Source: an uncultured cyanobacterium | GTDB taxonomy: Bacteria; Cyanobacteriota; Cyanobacteriia; Cyanobacteriales; CAWCAG01 | Direction: 5' to 3' | DNA: 64,000 nucleotides | Assembly: GCA_963793425.1 (NCBI GenBank) | Contig: CAWCAG010000009.1 | Coordinates: 704,001-768,000, forward strand | Shown here: positions 1 to 64,000 of the stretch, one piece after another | How positions within the stretch are numbered: position 1 is the first letter of the stretch | Layout of the letters: each line of letters begins with the position of its first letter | Program-made: the position numbers and the translations under genes | The notes under the pieces: generated by a model | What the model was told of the DNA's origin: nothing | Databases searched by the model: none | Seen by the model: only the letters and a program-made list of their open reading frames with translations

Positions 1-36
1 ATGCCTTCAAAGCCAGTGCAAATCTGGTCGCCTGCT
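1..36 (+). tRNA. 3' end of a tRNA or tRNA-like RNA truncated by the window edge (identity unknown)
   Basis: T-arm-like GCCAG-TGCAAAT-CTGGT (12-28), then a 7-nt acceptor-like strand CGCCTGC and T. The 5' half lies outside the window. Confidence 0.55.
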
Positions 37-97
37 TTTATATGTTCTAATTAAGGAGGAGAGATTATGTTAGAAAATAAACCAGTTTGAAACTACC

Positions 98-616
98 ATG
101 AAACCTAAAATAAATATCTTGCAGACAAGTATTACCACCCTTAAAATCGATGCTATCGTTAATGCAGCAAATAGTTCTTTATTAGGGGGAGGCGGTGTTG
201 ATGGAGCAATTCATCGAGCCGCAGGACAGGAATTAGTGCAAGAATGTCGTTTGTTGGGTGGGTGCAAAACGGGGCAAGCTAAAATTACTAAAGGTTATCA
301 ACTACCAGCCAAATACGTTATTCATACAGTAGGCCCAGTTTGGCAAGGTGGCAAGAATGGTGAAGCAAAGTTATTAGCTTCTTGCTATGATTCTTGTTTT
401 CAGTTAGCTAAAAAACATCAACTTAAAACTATAGCTTTTCCGGCTATTAGCTGTGGAGTTTATGGCTATCCTATTGAGCAAGCAATTCCTATTGCTTTTC
501 AAGCTACTTTAAACTTTTTATCTCAAAATGAGAGCTTCAAAGAAGTAATTTTTGCTTGTTTTAGTGATGAGGTTTACTCGTCTTATTTAAAGGTGAAAGA
601 AGAGTTACTAAATTAG
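98..616 (+). CDS. Macro-domain protein (YmdB-like O-acetyl-ADP-ribose deacetylase / ADP-ribosylhydrolase)
   Basis: [31 protein letters not shown] and [12 protein letters not shown] macro motifs. Confidence 0.95.
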
Positions 617-717
617 TTTGACGATCACTTTTGTTAACGGAGTTAAATAATACCTAGCATAGATTAAATAACTGCGAAATTGTGTCATATTTAAGGTGAA
701 GTAATCTAAGGTAAATC

Positions 718-1161
718 ATGTTAGAAGTTTCTGAGCATCCAATGGGTAAGATCATCACCAAGTTAACCATAATCAATCGTGCCGATCAAAATGTGGCAGC
801 ACGAGGATATATTCCGACAGATGAAGTGCGCTCTGTCACCCTAGATAACGTTTTGGTAGATACAGGAGCAACAACTCTTTGTTTGCCAGCTAATACTATC
901 GCTAAACTTGGTTTAGATATCCTCAAAGAAGTTGATGTAGAAACAGCTAATGGCATTGGTAAAGCAAGAATTTTTCAGGATGCAAAAATCTCTTTATTAG
1001 GTAGAGAAGGTACGTTTGAATGTTTAGAATTGCCTGGTGGTACTAACCCTTTGTTAGGAGTTATCCCTTTAGAAGCTTTAGGCCTTGAATTAGATTTACA
1101 AAATCAAAAGTTAGTTACTTTGCCGATTAATCCCACCAAAACTTACCTAACAATTCTTTAG
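718..1161 (+). CDS. Clan AA (retropepsin-like) aspartic protease
   Basis: LVDTGAT catalytic motif, ETANG flap and LLG motif; 147 aa. Confidence 0.85.
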   Translation: MLEVSEHPMGKIITKLTIINRADQNVAARGYIPTDEVRSVTLDNVLVDTGATTLCLPANTIAKLGLDILKEVDVETANGIGKARIFQDAKISLLGREGTFECLELPGGTNPLLGVIPLEALGLELDLQNQKLVTLPINPTKTYLTIL

Positions 1162-1195
1162 TAATTTTTAGGTATTAATCAAAACAAAAAATCTT

Positions 1196-1266
1196 GCGGA
1201 TATAGTGTAAAGGTAGCATCTGAGCTTTCCAAGCTTTAGGTACGAGTTCAAATCTCGTTATCCGCT
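1196..1266 (+). tRNA. trnG: tRNA-Gly(TCC), no encoded CCA
   Basis: Acceptor GCGGATA/TATCCGC; anticodon loop TT-TCC-AA; T-arm ACGAG-TTCAAAT-CTCGT. Confidence 0.92.
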
Positions 1267-1294
1267 TGCCTAGTTTGCCAAAAACTAGCAACAA

Positions 1295-1367
1295 ACCCCT
1301 ATAGCTCAGCGCAGAGAGCAGCGCCTTTCTAAGGCGAGAGTCCTAGGTTGGAATCCTAGTGAGGGTG
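1295..1367 (+). tRNA. trnR: tRNA-Arg(TCT), atypical, no encoded CCA
   Basis: Acceptor ACCCCTA/TGAGGGT (one mismatch); D-stem GCTC/GAGC; loop TT-TCT-AA; T-arm CTAGG-TTGGAAT-CCTAG. Confidence 0.85.
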
Positions 1368-1427
1368 TTTAAATGTAGTAAAATAAAGGAGGTTATTTTC
1401 TGTTGCAACTAATTAAACACCGCATCT

Positions 1428-1672
1428 GCAATACAATCGCATTATCTAGCGTGACCTAATCATGAGAGCATACATACCGAGTACGAGAGGAATAAGTACC
1501 TCTGCCCTAGTTGCAGAGGGCGTGAAACATTGTTGGTACAAAGAACCCGGCAGGTTGGCTTAGAAGCAGCCATCCTTTAAAGAGTGCGTAATAGCTCATC
1601 GGCGGAGTGCCTTCTGATGTGATGAACGCTAAAAAGCTCTGATAACTTGCACGCCAAGAGCGATTGTATTGC
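1428..1672 (+). ncRNA. Putative ribosome-mimic ncRNA: sarcin-ricin loop plus 23S H42-H44 (uL10/uL11-binding GTPase-associated centre)
   Basis: Perfect 13-bp terminal helix GCAATACAATCGC (1428-1440) / GCGATTGTATTGC (1660-1672). AGTACGAGAGGA at 1480-1491 is identical to the SRL of the 23S in this window (62912-62923, minus strand). GTTGGCTTAGAAGCAGCCATCCTTTAAAGAGTGCGTAATAGCTCA at 1554-1598. Confidence 0.85.
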
Positions 1673-1802
1673 CATAAAAAAAATACCTTGCACAACAAAG
1701 CTATTCTACTTTGAATAAAGTTTGCTCATTCAGATTTGCAGCAAACTCTAGTACCTCTAGCAATGTTTAATGTTTAATGTTCAATGATTTAGGGAGTTAA
1801 CC

Positions 1803-3092
1803 ATGCCTGTAATTGTGATGGAAGTTAAGAGTGCAGAGAAACATCCTCATGCTGATACTTTGCAGCTCTATACTATGGTTGCTCCGGGTTATGAACAGGT
1901 ACAAATTGTTGCTAATCTGGAAAATATTTATCAAGTTGGTGATGTTGTGGCTGTTGCTTTAGTTGATTCTGTGCTTAAAGATGGGACGAAAATCAAACCT
2001 GTTAAGCTTAGAGGTATTTACTCTTTTGGTATGGCTTTAGGAAAAGTAGAAGCTGCAATTGCGAGGAATCTATCCCAAACCTATTGCCAAAAGGAGATAG
2101 TAGATAATGTACAGCTACAAAAATGGCCGAGTATTGAACTTTTAGCTAATGTACGTCGGAGTTTAGAAATTCTGGAGAAAACACCATCTGTTACTTATCG
2201 TAGCAAAGTCAAGCTAGATGGGACAAATGGTGGAGTGCAGATTTTTGCGAATGGTAAGGTTGCGGCTCAAAGTAGAACACAAATTATCACTCCAGAAAGT
2301 GATAATGCTGGGTTTGCTGCTTGGGTAAACCAGAACATTGACTATTTTGCAAACTTGGCTACCTCACAACATTTAACCTTGTTTGGTGAATGGTGCGGTA
2401 AAGGTATTCAAAAGCGTACAGCTATTGCTCAAATTGAACGTAAAGTTTTTGCTATCTTTGCGGTGCAATATGGAGGCATAGGTAGTCAGGTTGCTAAGTT
2501 AGCAGTTAATCCGGCTTCTATCCGTGCTTTGCTACCAGAACATTCTGACATTTTTGTCTTACCATTCTGGGGAGAAGCAATTACCTTGGATTTCGGGAAT
2601 GCAGCACAATTAGCACAAGCTGCTGAGAAGTTCAATTCTCTGGTTGAGGATGTTGAAGCAGTAGATCCTTGGGTTGAAGAGACTTTTGGCATCAAAGGCA
2701 TTGGTGAAGGATTGGTGATGTATCCGCAGAGTGATACCTTGGTAGATAGGCTAGAATATAGCCAATTGTTGTTTAAAGCTAAGGGTGATAAGCATCAGGT
2801 TGTCAAAACCAAAAAGCCTGTGCAAATTGCTCCTGAAGTGGCCAAGGGTGTTGATGAATTTGTCGAAATGTTCATTACGCCAGCACGTTTGGAACAAGCT
2901 ACAACGGAGGCTTGCCAAGGAGGGTTTGTGATGCAGAAAATTGGTGCATTTCTGAAATGGGTTAATACCGATGTTCAAAAAGAAAGTGTGGCTGAATTAG
3001 AAGCCGCAAACTTAACTTGGAAGCAGGTTAATAAAGGGGTGACTAAGGCAGCAAAAGTATGGTATCAGGGGAAGGTAATGGGTAATAGGTAA
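1803..3092 (+). CDS. RNA ligase (Rnl2/Rnl5-like nucleotidyltransferase) with N-terminal tRNA-binding OB-fold
   Basis: N-terminal HPHADTL..KLRGIYSFGM OB motif; ligase motifs KLDGTN (I), FGEW (III), EGLV (IV), FKAK (V). Confidence 0.88.
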   Translation: MPVIVMEVKSAEKHPHADTLQLYTMVAPGYEQVQIVANLENIYQVGDVVAVALVDSVLKDGTKIKPVKLRGIYSFGMALGKVEAAIARNLSQTYCQKEIVDNVQLQKWPSIELLANVRRSLEILEKTPSVTYRSKVKLDGTNGGVQIFANGKVAAQSRTQIITPESDNAGFAAWVNQNIDYFANLATSQHLTLFGEWCGKGIQKRTAIAQIERKVFAIFAVQYGGIGSQVAKLAVNPASIRALLPEHSDIFVLPFWGEAITLDFGNAAQLAQAAEKFNSLVEDVEAVDPWVEETFGIKGIGEGLVMYPQSDTLVDRLEYSQLLFKAKGDKHQVVKTKKPVQIAPEVAKGVDEFVEMFITPARLEQATTEACQGGFVMQKIGAFLKWVNTDVQKESVAELEAANLTWKQVNKGVTKAAKVWYQGKVMGNR

Positions 3093-3105
3093 TAGGTAAT
3101 AGGTA
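3074..3105 (+). repeat. Heptamer tandem repeat (GGTAATA)n, STRR-type
   Basis: ggtaatg ggtaata ggtaata ggtaata ggta, spanning the ligase stop codon. Confidence 0.85.
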
Positions 3106-3229
3106 TGATCTCAAATCTGGTTCATAAAGTGCCTTGATAAAATCATGGCATCAAGTTTTCAAACCCTGCTCCCTACTCCCTACTCCCCACCCTAACCGAT
3201 AACCTTTGCAACCAAACCCAGGACTTAAT

Positions 3230-3685
3230 ATGACTATCTACTTCTATGGCCCTCGTGTCAAACCCTATGGTTGTTTTTCCAACTTTTCTCGTCATGGTTT
3301 TGAGTTAGACGGTGCTTGGTGGGCTACTAGTGAGCATTATTTTCAAGCACAAAAATTTATCAATACTGATGCAGAATGGGCTGAAAAAATTCGTGGGGCT
3401 AAAAGTCCTAAAGAAGCTGCTAAAATGGGACGCGATCGCAATTATCCTTTACGCAGTGATTGGGAAAAAGTTAAGGATGGCATTATGCAACGCGCTGTGT
3501 TGCAGAAGTTTTCTACCCACAATGATCTCCGTGAGATTCTTATTAATACAGGGGATGAGTTAATTGTGGAAAATGCTCCCGGAGATTACTACTGGGGTTG
3601 TGGCAAAGATGGCAGCGGCAAGAATAAGTTAGGAGAAATTCTCATGGCAGTACGAGAAACTTTGCAGAAGAATCAAGAGTCGTAA
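3230..3685 (+). CDS. NADAR (YbiA-like) family protein
   Basis: FSNF, SEHYFQAQKF, LVENAPGDYYWGCG and GKNKLGEILM motifs; ATG at 3230 preferred over TTG at 3206. Confidence 0.93.
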   Translation: MTIYFYGPRVKPYGCFSNFSRHGFELDGAWWATSEHYFQAQKFINTDAEWAEKIRGAKSPKEAAKMGRDRNYPLRSDWEKVKDGIMQRAVLQKFSTHNDLREILINTGDELIVENAPGDYYWGCGKDGSGKNKLGEILMAVRETLQKNQES

Positions 3686-3736
3686 AGGTAATCGGGAAGA
3701 GTTGATAGTAACATCTTCCCAACTTCCAATAATTAA

Positions 3737-3996
3737 GGGGAGGTTGTCTAAAAGGCAAGACACCGTAGAAAAGTTTTAAAACGGTTCCCACAAGGACAAT
3801 CGGGTTTTCCTTAGTAAGGTCAAAAGTTGCATCGCGACATTCCCTGAATGGGCAAACGGGTAACAGGTTGCAGAGGCACTGAAAGGAATTAATAGTCCGA
3901 AATGGGGGTGGTTCCCATTTGCTGTAAAGGTAGTAAGGAAGCACTTTTCCTGAAAGTTACCGTCGGTTGATGCGGGTTCAAATCCCGTCCTCTCCA
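3737..3996 (+). ncRNA. tRNA-Ala-like RNA with about 200 nt of structured sequence in place of the anticodon arm
   Basis: Acceptor GGGGAGG/CCTCTCC with G3.U70 and discriminator A; D-arm GTCT-AAAAGGCA-AGAC; T-arm GCGGG-TTCAAAT-CCCGT; no anticodon loop; internal long-range helices. Confidence 0.75.
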
Positions 3997-4041
3997 TTTT
4001 TAAAATCGGGAGTTTTGGAGTGTTGCAAAGAGGAAAATTAA

Positions 4042-4140
4042 GGGAATGTAGCTCAATTTGGCAGAGCAACCGACTTTTAATCGGTTGGTTGTGGGTAACT
4101 CCTAACGGAGACGCTACGCGAACAAGTCCCACCATTCCCA
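4042..4140 (+). tRNA. trnK: tRNA-Lys(TTT) with a 26-nt insertion in the T-loop (possible pseudogene)
   Basis: Acceptor GGGAATG/CATTCCC; anticodon arm ACCGA-CTTTTAA-TCGGT; T-stem GTGGG/CCCAC interrupted at 4097-4122. Confidence 0.88.
4097..4122 (+). mobile_element. Small dispersed repeat (SDR-like) insertion
   Basis: AACTCCTAACGGAGACGCTACGCGAA forms two mini-hairpins; a related copy lies at 33100-33123. Confidence 0.7.
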
Positions 4141-4188
4141 CTTTTTCATAAAGGGGAGAAAACTATTAAACATTGGCAAAAACAACAT

Positions 4189-4253
4189 TTCGTATTCTTG
4201 CTCGGAACGAGGCAATGCGTTGCAGAAAAGTCATTGCTAAGGAAGAATGCGAA
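4189..4253 (+). ncRNA. Putative three-way-junction structured RNA
   Basis: 11-bp closing helix TTCGTATTCTT/AAGAATGCGAA encloses hairpins CTCG/CGAG and GCAATG/CATTGC. Confidence 0.45.
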
Positions 4254-4314
4254 GGCGCGAGGCAGAATGTAGTCTGAGGTGAGACTATGATTTTGCTTTC
4301 GCGCCCTTTTTTTT
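4254..4314 (+). terminator. Long hairpin plus T8 tract, likely terminator of the tRNA/RNA-repair island
   Basis: GGCGCGAGGCAGAAT..TAGTCT / AGACTA..ATTTTGCTTTCGCGCC followed by C and TTTTTTTT. Confidence 0.75.
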
Positions 4315-4351
4315 GTTAACTTTCACAGTAAAACTAAGCACTGGTTTAGTT

Positions 4352-7300
4352 TTACCAAGGACTCCCAATCATAGTAAAAGCACTCCAATAATAAGGATGA
4401 TTCAAATTTTCATCCCCTAATGCAGCTAAATTTTCTGGTAAGGGAATTTCAATTTCTGGAGTAATCAGCTTGCCGTCTTGCAACTTAACTTCCCCTCTAA
4501 TCATCGCTAGTTGCGCTTGGCGCAGGGCTTCTGCTTTAATGGGGGCTACCTTGAGTTGCTCGTAGAGTGTAGCCATAAACCCTAAAGTACCTTCATCGCT
4601 TACTGTCCATAAGCTTCCCAGGGCTGATTTAACTCCGGCTTGGTTAGCTAACCCAGCAAAGCCTAATTCTGATTCCACACTGCCCACAGCAGTACGACAA
4701 GCACTTAATACCATCAACTCTACCGCAGGCTTATTTAAACCTAGTTGCCGCAATTGATCTAAACTAATTTTCTGGTCCCAAAATTGAATGTATGAATTAC
4801 TGGGTTTACCAGCATTAAATTCAGCATGGGTAGCGAGATGAACGATACCAAAAGGTTTATTAGCACGTTCTGATTTAAGATTTCCCGGAGTGAATTTGTC
4901 CCCCAGCAAAGATTTACCCGGCCATAAATTGTTAGCAATTGTCTTTATTTCTATAGGTACAGCAGGTAAATCTGGTAATTCAGCAAATGTCTCGGTTCCC
5001 ATGGCTAAGACTTCCATGTTTTTAACATCAACATAGCGAGTGTCAGTCAGAGAGAGACTCGGCATCAAACCTAAGCTATATTTTTCCAGGACAAACTGTT
5101 CACCATCGTGAAGCGCGGCAATGGGGATAGAACGTATCCCAGTATCTAGTATAAAAGCGAGGTTATTAATACCTTGTGCCTGCAACTCCTCTTCTAAGGG
5201 GGCAAGCAGCCATTGATATAGTTGTTGGGACGGGACTAGGTAAGCATTGGGACGGGAAGGATTAGTGATGGTGCGGCGAAAGGTTTTAGCAACTTGTTGT
5301 ACCTTGGCACGAGTTATGCCTCGTATCGGTTTGCGGAGGATTTTTCCTTCGGCGGTTAAGAGAACAAGTTCCAATTGATCATCTTCTTGGGGAGGAAATT
5401 TTAAGTTGTTAGACTTGCTTTGTTGTTTGTCCCCCTTATTTTCTGAAGGTGCAGCTAATTCGGCCGGGAAAAAGGCAGCGTAAATAAGGGCTGGTTTGAC
5501 TCCTGTTTCTCTGTTGATGCTGCGTAAGATATCTTTAGCTTCATCTAAACTAGTAATTTCGTTATCATCTTCTTCACCAAAGTAATTTTCAAAATCCTCA
5601 GTAAATTTCTCCTCTAATTGCTGAATGATGGGGTCAATTTGCAATTGGGGAACGGGTTGGTCAAAATTAACTTTTGGCAGAGGAGTTTCTTCGGGAAGAA
5701 TATCATCTGGAACAGGATCATCTACGGCTATGGTTGCTACATCAATGCTTACTGGTTGCTGAGTCGAAGAGACACCATCGCTAACACTGATGGTAAAACC
5801 ATTTACACTGCCTGTAGTTCCTGCTGGGGGTGTGTAAACTAAAGTATCTCCAGAAGAAATAACCGTTCCTGCTGTTGCCGTTACGCCGTTAACTGTGAGG
5901 ATGCCTGCATCAATTGATACGATAGTGATGGAGGTGAGGTTATCACTGTTCACATCCCCAGTAATTGGGTTTAAATCAGCAAAGGTGAAGGTAAAAGGTT
6001 GGTCTTGTAGCGCCCCGGTTAAGGAGTTTGCTGTTAGGGTAGGGGGTGTGTTGATGGAGGTGATAGTAATATCTGTTGGTGTCCCGGAAGCAACACCACC
6101 ATTAGGAAGGACAGGGAAAGTAGCCAGTATCAAGGAGGCTAGTACCTGTGTTAATATCTCCTGCTAAACCATTAGTACTAGCATCGCCAATGCTGAAAGG
6201 ATTGTTGTCAGTACCGCCATCATGGGTGATGCTAACATTGCCCCCTTGAATATTACTAATATCACCTGCTGCGGTTGTTGCCTCAGTATCAATAGTATTA
6301 CCAGCAAGAAGCCCTCTTACAGTGCCATTATTAGCTGTGATAGTTACTTGGCCTCCCCTCGCTGTGTTAGTGTCAAAGCCTCTACCGTAAGCTGTTGTAT
6401 CTATGCTATCGAAGATTATATTGCTGCCCGATGTTGTACCAGATGTTAAGCTGACATCACCCCCAGTTGCTAAAGTAGGACTATTTCCTCCATTGGTAGA
6501 GGCAGAGGTATTGATAATATTGGTCGTGATTGTTGTCCCTGCTGTTAAAGCAACATTACCCCCAGTTGCTCGATCATCTGCATAAGCGAAAGGTTTCTGT
6601 TATTGGCATAAGAGTTAATGTTTCCTGTGGAAATACTACCTCCGGCATTCAAAGTAACATTACCACCAAAACTCATATCGTCAGCAGGATATTCGATATC
6701 GGCGTAGGAGTTAATGTTTCCTGTGACAATGCTACCTGTTGTGCTACTAATGTTAATATCTCCGCCACTATTGATTAATCCAAAATCATCGGTATTAAAA
6801 GTATTAACTGCTCCAGTTTGCACATCACCAGTTGCTTCTATAATTAAAGGGCCACCGTAATGGGTAAAGCCATCAAAACCGACATCAATATCCCCTACAT
6901 TGATACTTCCAGTGGTAGGAGTCCCGGAACCATTAAAAGTAGTTCCTCCTGTAGTTTGGGGTGTATTAGCTGTATTATCTAAGCTAGTTTTTCCTGCTTG
7001 CAAAACTAACCCACCGTTACCTGTAGTTAAGATGGTAAAGTGAGGATCGCTTGTCGGTATAGCACCGGGAGTATCTGCTCCGTTGATAATAATGTTGCCA
7101 CCGTTAATACTGCCCAGAGTTTCTACTTTTAGAGAAACCCCTGTATAATTACCAAAGGTAACATCCCCTGTAGAACTAATGATGGGGTCATAAAAACTAA
7201 CAAAGTTGCCTCCATCTCCTTGTAAGTTAAGGATGGAAAACTTACCGCCACTGAGATAGTGGGCATCCCCAGAAATAAAGCCGTCACTAACTAAACTTAA

Positions 7301-9232
7301 GTCGCCACCACTTACAAAAGGAGTTTGGCTATGTTGCAAAGCTAAAATATCAATGGCTTTGTCCCCTTGAATGTAGAGATTGCCCCCTGCTTTTATTTGT
7401 AAAGGTTGGTTGGCACTATCTCTGGCATAAACAGTATCTTTGGCTTTGAGGTCTAAATCCCCTGTGGTTTGTAAGTTGCTCTCAACTAAAGTTAAGTTAC
7501 TCGCTGCTGCTAAGGTGGCACTTTCTGCGGTTAACTGATTTGCGGCCACATCCCCTACTCCCACCGTTGTATCAGAATTGCTTAACTGGGCTTCTCCTTG
7601 GGCATTAACTTCTAAGCCTGTTTCACCTACATCGCTTCCGGTTAGCAATTCTGGTAACATCAAAGGGTTAATAGGTACAGGATCTCCTTGACTATTGGTA
7701 GGTGGTTCAATTTCCAAACCTAAAATATGCCCAGCTTGGTTAATTCTTACCCGACTACTTCCTGGTACAGCACTGATAGTAACATTACCTCCCTGTGCCT
7801 GCAATGTTCCTGTACTAGCGACAGTACCGCCAATTAAGGAAAGGTTGTTACCCTCGCTTACTGCCAAATCCCCAGCATTAATAATTGCCCCCGGTTGTAA
7901 GCTGTTGAAGACAAAAGCATTGGGATTACCTACCAAAGAGTTATAATCGTTTGTGCCAACACTATTAAAAGTCCCTCCCTCGAAACCAATTCCTGTTGCC
8001 GTAGTAGCAGAAAAGGAACCAGGTACATTTAATTGGGCATTGCTACCAAAAACCATACCAGCGGGGTTCATTAAAAAGAGGTTAGCATTGCTGCCTGTGA
8101 TTTGAATTAAACCATTTATTACCGAAGCATTGCCCCCGACAACTCGACCTAAAATGTTATTAATACCAGGTTGAGAAAGGAAATTAGCAGTTTGGGATGC
8201 AGAAAGCCCAAAGTCTTGGAAGCTATGGAAAAGATTACCCCCATTCCCTGATAAGCTTCCTCCTTGAATATTAAACTGGTTGCCAGTTTGGTTAATAATA
8301 GTCCCCGTACCATCACTAGCTGAATTAATGGTTTGTGCCTGGGCATTGAAAGTGGTTGTTAAACATAAAGTTGTGAGTAAGGTTGAGAAAAAACTAAAAC
8401 TTGCATTGGTTTTTAAAAACTTGATGGGTAAAGTGTAAAACTGTTTAACCGCATTTTTAATCGGACGTAAACCCAGCCAAGCTTCCATCTGGCAACCAAA
8501 GCCTTTAGTTTTAATAACTGCCTCGTAGCGATCCCTAAGCCCTCTTCGCTTCAATGCCCTTAAAGTTGCCCCATAAGTTGCATAAATTTGTTCGGCTCTT
8601 TTTTGGTAAGAAAAACTCTCTGGGTTGCTGCGATAATAATAAAGAGGTTTGGCTAAATGTTTAATTTCTGTTGCTTCAGAAAGTCTCAAACAAAGGTCAT
8701 AATCTTCTGTATATAAAGATTGGCTATCAATACCTCCCACTTCCTCAAAAACCGCGCGGCGTATCAGCCGAAAATGGAAAGTCATAAAGTTGGTTAATAA
8801 TTGATGAGGAGAATAAGCAACCTGAGTTCGCTGACCATAGCCAAGTACTTTACCATTATTATGGAGATCCCAATAATCGGTATAAACCATACCTGCATTA
8901 GAGTTAGCTGCCAACACAACTAAAGTCTCTTCCAAAGCCGTCGGTGCAAGAAGATCGTCACTATCTATCCAAGCTAAATATTGCCCCTGAGTTGCGGCGA
9001 TTCCAGCTTGCAAAGCCGGTACTCTACCTTGATGTTTTGCGGCGATAATACGAACTCGTGGATCTTCTTGAGCATATTTGTGAGCAATAGCTAGGGAATT
9101 ATCCGTAGAACCATCATCCCAAATTAATAGCTCGAAATCTGGCCAGGTTTGCCTTAAAATACTCTCTATGGCAGATCCGAGCAACTTTTCTCGATTATAA
9201 GAAGTAATAACAATTGAAATAGGAACTACCAT
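4352..9232 (-). CDS. GT2 glycosyltransferase - filamentous haemagglutinin (TPS) - CHAT fusion, broken by two compensating frameshifts (about 6590 and about 6122)
   Basis: N-terminal GT2 (DDGSTD, WIDSDD, EDYDL); TPS motifs NLFHSF and NPAG; Gly/Asn/Thr repeats; C-terminal CHAT (HLATH, LSAC, PYYWSAF). The 6122-6590 segment is open in another frame. Confidence 0.75.

Positions 9233-62676: not shown

Positions 62677-64000
<1,324 letters not shown>

Follow-up and report, generated by a model that had tools for sequence, protein, structure and literature searches.

A widespread, covarying RNA family of about 205 nucleotides in cyanobacterial tRNA gene arrays, with apparent copies of the sarcin-ricin loop and the GTPase-associated centre of 23S rRNA

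Introduction

We report a stand-alone structured RNA encoded in a 64,000-nucleotide stretch of DNA from an uncultured cyanobacterium (assembly GCA_963793425.1, contig CAWCAG010000009.1, positions 704,001 to 768,000 of the forward strand; the whole stretch is called the window below and positions are counted from its first letter). The conserved core of the RNA, from the 5' strand to the 3' strand of its closing helix P1, occupies 1447..1656 on the plus strand, as placed by the alignment, pair counts and coordinate map described below, and in this genome the RNA is extended to 1428-1672. By its sequence, this RNA of roughly 205 nucleotides (nt) appears to reproduce both of the rRNA elements that jointly dock the translational GTPases, and we model it as a four-way junction, one arm of which is a sarcin-ricin loop (SRL) hairpin and another a copy of the uL11/uL10-binding GTPase-associated centre (GAC; helices H42-44). 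It belongs to a widespread covarying RNA family that is absent from Rfam, and it is a fixed component of long tRNA gene arrays and of related small cassettes.

Papers are cited here by their PMC numbers, and what is said of each refers to the part of its text that was accessible. The long tRNA arrays of cyanobacteria (L-arrays) are silent in normal growth of Anabaena and are induced by translation inhibitors (PMC8421152), and they are linked to genes for an HNH endonuclease and for RNA processing (PMC8421152; PMC10272220). The RNA itself is apparently undescribed. A literature search, with subscription journals outside its reach, found no published mimic of the SRL or GAC, no rRNA-like RNA in tRNA arrays and no decoy of this sort; in the accessible main text of PMC8421152 the words '23S' and 'sarcin' are absent and the six mentions of 'rRNA' concern other matters; and the main text of a survey published in 2026 that covers RNA structures of 202 cyanobacterial genomes, as far as it was accessible, is without 23S, large subunit (LSU) or tRNA genes, its supplements being a place where the motif could be listed unnamed (PMC12873609).

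Structure of the RNA and its rRNA-like modules

A reading of the window made from its letters alone, referred to here as the sequence-only reading, had proposed that the SRL and the stalk base are fused in one RNA at this place, and the anatomy that it described is found in the folded RNA. The fold has an energy of -78.1 kcal/mol (z = -3.48), and none of 200 shuffled sequences is as stable. The two arms of a perfect outer helix of 13 bp (1428..1440 and 1660..1672) pair in the minimum free energy (MFE) fold, and the duplex reaches -21.5 kcal/mol, or z = -6.4 against shuffled flanks. Nested within it are the helices GCGTG 1449-1453/CACGC 1650-1654 and AGAGC 1465-1469/GCTCT 1636-1640, the latter within P2 (5' strand 1462..1469, partner 1636-1643), which closes the four-way junction in our model. 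The SRL hairpin P3 (1475..1498) consists of a short stem and the 12-mer AGTACGAGAGGA at 1480-1491, which is identical in the window's real 23S gene (minus strand of 62880-62960); it is followed by a variable hairpin, P4 (1499..1519), with the stem CCTCTGC 1499-1505/GCAGAGG 1513-1519, and by a long arm (1520..1629) made up of P5, a lower stem and the copy of H42-H43-H44.

The GAC copy, comprising the top of H42, H43 and H44, was located with the bacterial LSU model of Rfam (RF02541), which aligns 1535..1611 with its positions 1080-1157, a match of 78 nt that covers the segment 1546-1603 assigned to H43-44 in the sequence-only reading. The match scored 61 bits in one scan and 55.3 bits (E 5.5e-16) in another, and the structure of H42, H43 and H44 was matched with it. 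The equivalents of A1067 and A1095 fall at 1562 and 1590 in agreement with the column mapping of the family, the E. coli numbering being the one that we take to be correct. Both stems of an H42-like arm, GGTAC 1535-1539/GTGCC 1607-1611 and ACATT 1527-1531/GATGT 1616-1620, are present, and these lower stems of the window's type were mapped. Two short LSU matches had been expected from Rfam and only one was found, the SRL being too short to score by itself; no other Rfam family was significant over 1428-1672 in the scans of the element. The lack of a full-length Rfam match and of a published description agrees with the earlier impression that no described family is present.

A bulged-G module is defined by AGUA / GAA with a GAGA tetraloop on a stem. 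In nearly all members of the family AGTACGAGAGGA is followed by A, and the pairs of the SRL stem are formed in 92.8% of cells. The GAC copy likewise keeps the three-way junction of the H42 top, H43 and H44, where 99-100% of cells pair and compensatory changes occur.

The outer helix calls for a narrower statement than it had been given. It is real and strong in this genome, but it is specific to a lineage: across 136 distinct flank pairs the median z was -0.9, with 32% below z -2, and we rejected it as a trait of the family. The closure that is conserved is the inner GCGTG/CACGC helix with its extension; relatives retain both modules, their permuted order and linkers of near-constant length, and not the 13-bp helix. 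In 25 of the flank cases a cyanobacterial palindrome, GCGATCGC, flanks the RNA on both sides.

Covariation and structural variants

Our alignment, A1, holds 144 distinct members, and its structure was built by hand from the rRNA model and from visible complementarity and covariation. It comprises the closing helix P1, P2 at the four-way junction, the SRL hairpin P3, the variable hairpin P4 and a long arm of P5, P6, the H42 top and the H43/H44 junction. Over its 53 pairs 93.9% of cells form a standard pair, compared with 37-56% when the partners are slid by 1-3 columns. Compensatory change is seen in 27 of the 53, with 543 compensatory cells observed against a shuffle mean of 166, and none of 500 shuffles reached the observed value on any measure. 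The helices that have no counterpart in rRNA take part in this, with compensatory change in 6 of 7 pairs of P1, 4 of 8 of P2, 6 of 6 of P4 and 3 of 6 of P5, as do those derived from rRNA, where one pair of the H42 top is CG in 77 members and UA in 65, a pair of H43 is GC in 122, AU in 16 and UA in 4, and a pair of H44 is UA in 139 and CG in 3. The SRL stem covaries most weakly (2 of 6 pairs). Since 115 of the 144 rows were gathered by means of a pattern in which the SRL and part of H43/H44 are fixed, invariance in those parts is partly by construction. Two automatic approaches were set aside: the RNAalifold consensus on A1 held only 28 pairs, some of them clearly wrong (for instance inside the SRL), and was replaced by the hand-built structure, and a blind scan of all columns against all others was swamped by clade structure.

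Three columns, a base of the H43 loop and a pair of H44, change as a unit. They read U,U-A in 136 members, C,C-G in three, the window's RNA included, and are mixed in five; when nine divergent members were added, six of these proved to be C,C-G, three U,U-A and none mixed. We take these columns to be the positions of a base triple that Conn, Gutell and Draper (1998) are reported to have described in the rRNA domain, and on that assumption their covariation would mean that the tertiary fold is kept as well.

The long arm occurs in two versions. The window's type, shared by variants of high G+C content in which it covaries, keeps the rRNA-like lower stem of H42 (GGTAC/GTGCC), and the majority of members have a shifted pairing of the lower arm, with 93.9% paired. 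The rRNA-like pairing was accordingly discarded as a family-wide feature, being 62.9% paired in A1, no better than controls, and it belongs to the minority of the window's type only.

Extent of the family

Among 401 genomes of the same order, BLAST gave about 105-110 (by count of rows) in which at least 100 nt of the query match at 72-82% identity, the remaining matches being the genomes' own 23S. All 43 copies collected by BLAST alone have the SRL 12-mer unchanged and a core of 200-210 nt. An exact pattern, the 12-mer joined to the H43/H44 motif, was then scanned through one genome for each of 185,579 species and was found at at least 121 loci. Of the 80 matches listed, 76 are from named cyanobacteria and four from metagenome-assembled genomes titled only 'uncultured bacterium'; the genera among the matches listed are Nostoc, Microcoleus, Tolypothrix, Calothrix, Moorena, Oscillatoria, Coleofasciculus, Laspinema, Elainella, Pantanalinema and others. 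In a sample of 301 genomes of the phylum the pattern occurs in 19, counting that of the window, and the other 18 carriers comprise 16 of the same order and two of another order of the same class; the reversed pattern, as a control, gave none. Thirteen small genomes of one family and about 170 genomes of other classes gave no match to the pattern, samples that do not amount to proof of absence.

Mobile elements yielded little. No plasmid in PLSDB matched the window's RNA at E <= 1e-15, or two of the high-G+C variants at E <= 1e-12, two pattern scans of IMG/VR gave no matches, and the matches among the INPHARED phages were all short rRNA-like pieces. The one unannotated match, in the record of Paenibacillus phage Pd_22F, was rejected as a whole 23S plus 5S; this record (MZ092003.1, 81450-86388) holds complete, unannotated genes for both beside a serine recombinase gene.

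A looser pattern gave at least 120 loci on metagenome contigs. Of 120 loci, 65 match the family profile; the other 55, in unrelated DNA, were discarded as matching by chance. Among the 65 are seven from DNA with a G+C content of 57-69% (L203, L250, L255, L259, L270, L298 and L311, in our numbering of loci), and seven whose SRL has the bacterial-type ending GGAC. The high-G+C members keep the helices and add new compensatory pairs; four of them have C,C-G and three U,U-A in the putative base-triple columns, GGAC ends the SRL in most, and one sits after three tRNA genes. A Pfam scan of the flanks of the seven turned up no informative partner genes. These divergent copies suggest that the family may reach beyond the cyanobacteria.

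Relation to the host rRNA

The genome has a single copy of the RNA, and its two 23S genes match only positions 117-171 of the query, at 87% identity. The host 23S differs from the RNA at several bases of H43, where the RNA has the general bacterial consensus, and its SRL ends in GGAC, that of the RNA in GGAA. A recent copy of host rRNA is ruled out by the differing H43 and closing base of the SRL. An LSU rRNA gene, pseudogene or fragment was likewise rejected, as only positions 1080-1157 of RF02541 match, the SRL lies upstream in permuted order, and the flanks consist of new helices and tRNA genes. The permuted order, the near-constant linkers, the covarying helices foreign to rRNA and the differing host 23S together uphold the view, first taken in the sequence-only reading, that this is a selected chimera of SRL and stalk base and not a fragment of rRNA. 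The host's real 23S genes have, for their part, an unusual H43 hairpin, altered in stem and loop relative to the Rfam bacterial consensus.

Genomic setting

The surroundings were surveyed over 6 kb on each side at 41 loci, namely the window and 40 other genomes (the 20 best BLAST matches and 20 lower-scoring ones). In 27 of these the RNA lies in or beside a long array of tRNA genes on the same strand, and it so qualifies as a part of the L-arrays, for which a constant place among at least 20 tRNA genes of one strand is expected. The commonest order is ...Gly, Gly, Val, Arg(TCT), the RNA, Ala, (Ala), His, Ser.... The gap between the RNA and the tRNA gene on its 5' side measures 70-107 nt (mode 74), and that on its 3' side 33-74 nt. 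The sequence-only reading had guessed at a link with tRNA arrays and RNA ligases; the link is real and stronger than the guess.

Recurrent protein-coding neighbours include enzymes of ADP-ribose removal and RNA repair. Microbial PARG is encoded within 6 kb at 9 of the 41 loci, NADAR at 8, KptA/Tpt1 at 7, Macro at 4, an RNA ligase of the window's type at 3, a second EF-Tu at 4, its identity to the genome's other copy being about 80%, and a VWA protein of about 480 amino acids (aa) at 15; at least one of PARG, NADAR, Macro or KptA is present at 18. PIN, HNH, GNAT and RNase T-like genes were also seen. The fullest array, at locus L187, runs PARG, Arg(TCT), RNA, Ala, NADAR, Ala, ligase, His, Ser, Ser ... 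HNH, Macro, KptA. Outside the arrays the RNA stands alone at 14 loci, among which two cassettes recur, one consisting of the RNA, a methyltransferase, KptA and an AAA ATPase, the other of the VWA protein (about 480 aa), the RNA, a protein of 280 aa that matched no family in Pfam or NCBIfam, and a short ThiF/E1-like protein of 212 aa (L180, L181, L188, L193, L196, L197, L198 and L048). A conserved open reading frame (ORF) beginning MVHIRFE precedes the VWA gene in L180, L188, L198 and L179.

The spacer upstream of the RNA often holds a Shine-Dalgarno-like motif, AAGGAGGT, which lies 54-90 nt (mostly 54-62) before P1 at 17 of the 41 loci, in every case an array locus, and which is followed by a pyrimidine run of the CCTTCTTCTG type able to pair with it and by an ATTAAT motif (for example in L039, L041, L042 and L047). 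A small ORF behind AAGGAGGT, between tRNA-Arg and the RNA, was considered and dropped, as it lacks an ATG and its frame is not conserved. At other places in the islands formed by these genes AAGGAGGT serves real genes.

ARAGORN also called some unusual tRNAs. One with a CTA anticodon (amber-suppressor-like and labelled Pyl) replaces tRNA-Arg(TCT) before the RNA in L038, L040 and L057, a TTA 'stop' tRNA was called among loci L038, L040, L057, L181 and L182-L191, and unusual A34 anticodons (Tyr-ATA, His-ATG, Asp-ATC, Asn-ATT, Phe-AAA) are found near array ends in L182-L191.

The locus in the window

Every feature listed at 1-4400 of the window, from the Macro gene through the tRNA-like elements, is on the plus strand. 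The island begins with a Macro-domain protein of 172 aa (98..616; Pfam PF01661, E 3e-49), which has a relative in the full array of L187, and a retropepsin-like aspartyl protease of 147 aa (718..1161; Pfam PF13975 / PF13650), with a relative within the L195 array. In the window the array has shrunk to two tRNAs: tRNA-Gly(TCC), a remnant of the array (1196..1266; ARAGORN, Rfam tRNA 61.8 bits), and tRNA-Arg(TCT) (1295..1367; ARAGORN), the usual array gene 5' of the RNA and the same neighbour as in most array loci. AAGGAGGT stands at 1386..1393 in the 5' spacer of the RNA. A scan of 600-4400 for promoters and terminators gave nothing above shuffles near the RNA. No RNA sequencing run was listed as holding 1150-3200 of the window, a result with no bearing on expression.

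Downstream of the RNA are genes for an RNA ligase of 429 aa with an N-terminal tRNA-binding domain (1803..3092; Pfam PF09414, PF01588), relatives of which lie inside the arrays of L187 and L195, and for a NADAR-domain protein (3230..3685; Pfam PF08719, E 7e-43). There follow two tRNA-like elements (3905..4140), found by sequence and by an Rfam search on E-values and assumed from their position alone to belong to the system. The first, 3905-3999, folds into an acceptor and T-arm and has a weak match to tmRNA (18 bits, E 1.4e-4); a motif, AAGGGGAGGTTG, at 3735-3746 precedes it, downstream of NADAR. The second, 4042-4140, resembles tRNA-Lys(UUU) with a T-loop insert of 31 nt and scores 57.7 bits with the Rfam tRNA model, although ARAGORN did not call it. 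A weak YrlA-like match spans 3950-4083 (24 bits against a gathering score of 69 in Rfam). Directly after the island, on the minus strand (4352-9232), come a CHAT-domain protein with a cadherin-like domain (593 aa) and then an ORF of 895 aa. Rfam also gave a match to NsiR1 in the window, which together with the named carriers of the family marks the genome as cyanobacterial.

Discussion

The reading that we favour, tentatively, is that the RNA serves as a target mimic, a decoy or bait for agents that attack the factor-binding centre of the ribosome. We infer this idea, and with it the transcription, processing, binding and decoy action of the RNA, from its anatomy, its linkage and the literature. 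Bullen et al. in 2022 are said to have found that the toxin RhsP2 prefers structured RNAs. RhsP2 modifies 2'-OH groups of RNA, PARG reverses the 2'-OH ADP-ribosylation of RNA and protects cells, and NADAR reverses the ADP-ribosylation of guanosine in RNA (PMC11833690). Tre23, a secreted bacterial toxin, ADP-ribosylates helix 44 of 23S rRNA at nt 1095-1098, and its minimal enriched fragment, C1043-C1123 (PMC8661411), would to judge by sequence be about the stretch that is copied in the RNA. Related ADP-ribosylating toxins target the P-loop of EF-Tu (PMC9825190) and the anticodon loop of tRNA-Thr (PMC13617354), and ribotoxins, N-glycosidases and certain VapC toxins attack the SRL (work cited in PMC8661411).

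On the target-mimic reading, the RNA would be released by the processing of the flanking tRNAs in arrays, or from its own promoter in stand-alone copies, and would draw agents that hit the factor-binding site, such as ADP-ribosylating toxins of the Tre23 kind, enzymes that cut or depurinate the SRL, and thiopeptides. Cleaning or mending of the RNA targets would then fall to the enzymes encoded alongside, namely the ADP-ribosyl hydrolases (PARG, NADAR, Macro), KptA and the RNA ligase. A ribosome could not be replaced by a short gene, and its two most attacked RNA sites would be offered as bait. The islands hold counterparts of each published target class (tRNAs, EF-Tu, and the RNA of the GAC and SRL), together with the published reversing enzymes and a ligase.

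Several observations weigh against a decoy. The bases that a toxin would be expected to seek are variable: A, G and C all occur at the equivalent of A1067, the H44 loop may be GTAACA, GTAATA or GTAGTA, and the loop bases contacted by factors and by thiostrepton are not fixed, which tells against this reading since a decoy for a base-specific toxin should keep the target base. Fourteen of the 41 loci lie outside arrays, 23 are without an ADP-ribose enzyme within 6 kb, and no single protein partner is conserved across loci, which were moreover picked by us from BLAST ranks and not at random. In stand-alone copies a TATAAT box stands about 20 nt before the extended P1 and the next ORF begins about 45 nt downstream with no obvious terminator, so that a 5' leader fits them as well as a free RNA does. 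The Anabaena array that has been studied seems to be without the RNA, to go by the lack of a match in PLSDB, if its plasmid is in that database. A decoy must, finally, be abundant to compete with ribosomes.

A broader reading, which we regard as possible though doubtful, takes the whole locus as a mobile island of translation rescue with a full spare set of tRNAs, a spare EF-Tu, enzymes that remove ADP-ribose and mend RNA, and a miniature replica of the GTPase-activating centre. The RNA with uL11 and uL10-bL12 would form a stalk-like particle that soaks up or reports toxins and antibiotics directed against the factor-binding site, a natural 'ribosome in pieces'.

The RNA might instead act on the cell's own proteins as a sponge that binds uL11, uL10-bL12 and/or GTPases (EF-G, EF-Tu including the copy in the islands, IF2, RelA-type enzymes), a free-floating miniature of the factor-binding centre that under stress holds back or stores factors or tunes the GTPase cycle. 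We consider this unlikely, even though the factor-binding centre has been defined as exactly these two rRNA regions, SRL and GAC (PMC2330231), isolated SRL RNA binds EF-G and IF2 (PMC3496166), conserved rRNA nucleotides and pairings are kept in both modules, and the second EF-Tu of four islands and the response of the arrays to translational stress (PMC8421152) would suit such a role. The RNA is linked to no gene for a ribosomal protein or EF-G, the partners that recur are enzymes of RNA repair and ADP-ribose, and it is the loop bases in contact with factors that vary.

Those partners invite the thought that the RNA tethers or activates a neighbouring PARG, NADAR, KptA, ligase, AAA or ThiF-like protein, in the manner of Y RNA with Ro, or, in a variant of the idea, that it presents an rRNA-shaped substrate which sets the specificity of the enzymes. 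Burroughs and Aravind are said in 2016 to have described RNA-repair operons with dedicated non-coding RNAs, and the YrlA family is in Rfam. The linkage to repair genes on the same strand is tight, for example in RNA-NADAR, in RNA-methyltransferase-KptA-AAA ATPase and in VWA-RNA-280-aa protein-ThiF-like protein. Yet the partner genes differ from locus to locus with no one of them conserved, the nearest neighbours in most array loci are tRNAs, and no Ro/TROVE gene was seen in the stretches examined, which leaves a repair cofactor or model substrate improbable in either variant.

Regulation in cis was also weighed: an rRNA-like fold in a 5' untranslated region could switch the downstream genes on binding uL11, uL10 or a factor, or on suffering damage by cutting or ADP-ribosylation. 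Leaders of ribosomal protein genes that mimic rRNA offer an analogy, the TATAAT box and the near ORF of the stand-alone copies fit, and a T-run directly after the closing helix in many copies could be an attenuator. Against this, tRNA genes flank the RNA at 27 of the 41 loci, usually with tRNA-Ala 33-74 nt downstream, so that there is no mRNA there for it to regulate; the downstream genes are not conserved, and no Rfam leader family matches. We judge a cis-acting leader or sensor quite improbable.

Many homing endonucleases cut rRNA genes. That background, and the HNH endonuclease genes that accompany the arrays (PMC8421152; Pfam HNH), might favour a reading with no function at the RNA level, in which the element is rRNA debris, an assembly chimera or a DNA-level site such as the target of the arrays' HNH homing endonuclease or a recombination substrate, but this is already disfavoured to the point of being hardly credible by the compensatory changes that maintain the helices, those foreign to rRNA included, by the constancy of length and order across more than 140 distinct copies, which come from many genera and assemblies, and by the permuted order of the modules, the differing host rRNA and the single genomic copy.

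Comparison with known systems

No free RNA that copies the factor-binding centre of the ribosome is known to us. In the RNA described here both H42-44 and helix 95 of 23S rRNA are reproduced in sequence and secondary structure, with covariation at the presumed base-triple positions, but in 23S the order of the two elements is opposite, and here they are joined by a new four-way junction within about 205 nt and with the new helices P1, P2, P4 and P5. The RNA evolves apart from the rRNA of its host, most members having U,U-A where rRNA has C,C-G and an SRL ending in GGAA where the host has GGAC, and it resides in tRNA arrays and not in rrn operons.

The leaders of ribosomal protein mRNAs, such as the L10 leader, are alike in being RNAs outside the ribosome that copy a protein-binding site of rRNA. 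They lie upstream of ribosomal protein genes, however, mimic one site loosely and act in cis, whereas the present RNA copies two sites almost exactly, is found mostly between tRNA genes and is not linked to ribosomal proteins; with no match to Rfam leaders (L10, L20 and similar) and with tRNAs and repair genes for neighbours, it was not assigned to that class. The Y RNAs, YrlA and the non-coding RNAs of repair operons share with it a structured RNA placed beside RNA ligases and end-healing enzymes that mimics an RNA of translation, but YrlA mimics tRNA and the window's RNA mimics rRNA, and a YrlA identity was rejected in view of the lack of a YrlA match over 1428-1672 and of a TROVE domain among the neighbour clusters scanned. 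Laboratory work on the 'ribosome in pieces' has used oligonucleotides of the SRL and the thiostrepton loop that bind EF-G, the same two pieces of rRNA outside the ribosome; those are separate synthetic fragments, while this is a natural, single, covarying molecule. The published long tRNA arrays, finally, have embedded protein genes and an HNH endonuclease (PMC8421152), and the RNA is a syntenic part of them, whereas the description in the accessible main text lists tRNA and protein genes (PMC8421152).

Conclusions

The RNA is more general than can be seen from the window alone and belongs to long tRNA arrays and to cassettes of RNA repair and ADP-ribose enzymes. Whatever its mechanism, an RNA of about 205 nt that is widely conserved, strongly covarying and missing from Rfam merits a family entry, and it gives structural biology a compact natural molecule in which to study the cooperation of the SRL and the stalk base with GTPases. 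For the long tRNA arrays, so far enigmatic, it would provide a coherent reading as a store of spare parts, a decoy and repair tools. If the RNA is a decoy or bait, it would bring a new principle, the mimicry of rRNA targets, into bacterial defence against translation-directed toxins and thiopeptide antibiotics; and if the broader reading of a translation-rescue island is true, it would be the first decoy RNA to mimic rRNA and would add a new layer to bacterial defence in conflicts with other bacteria and with phages.

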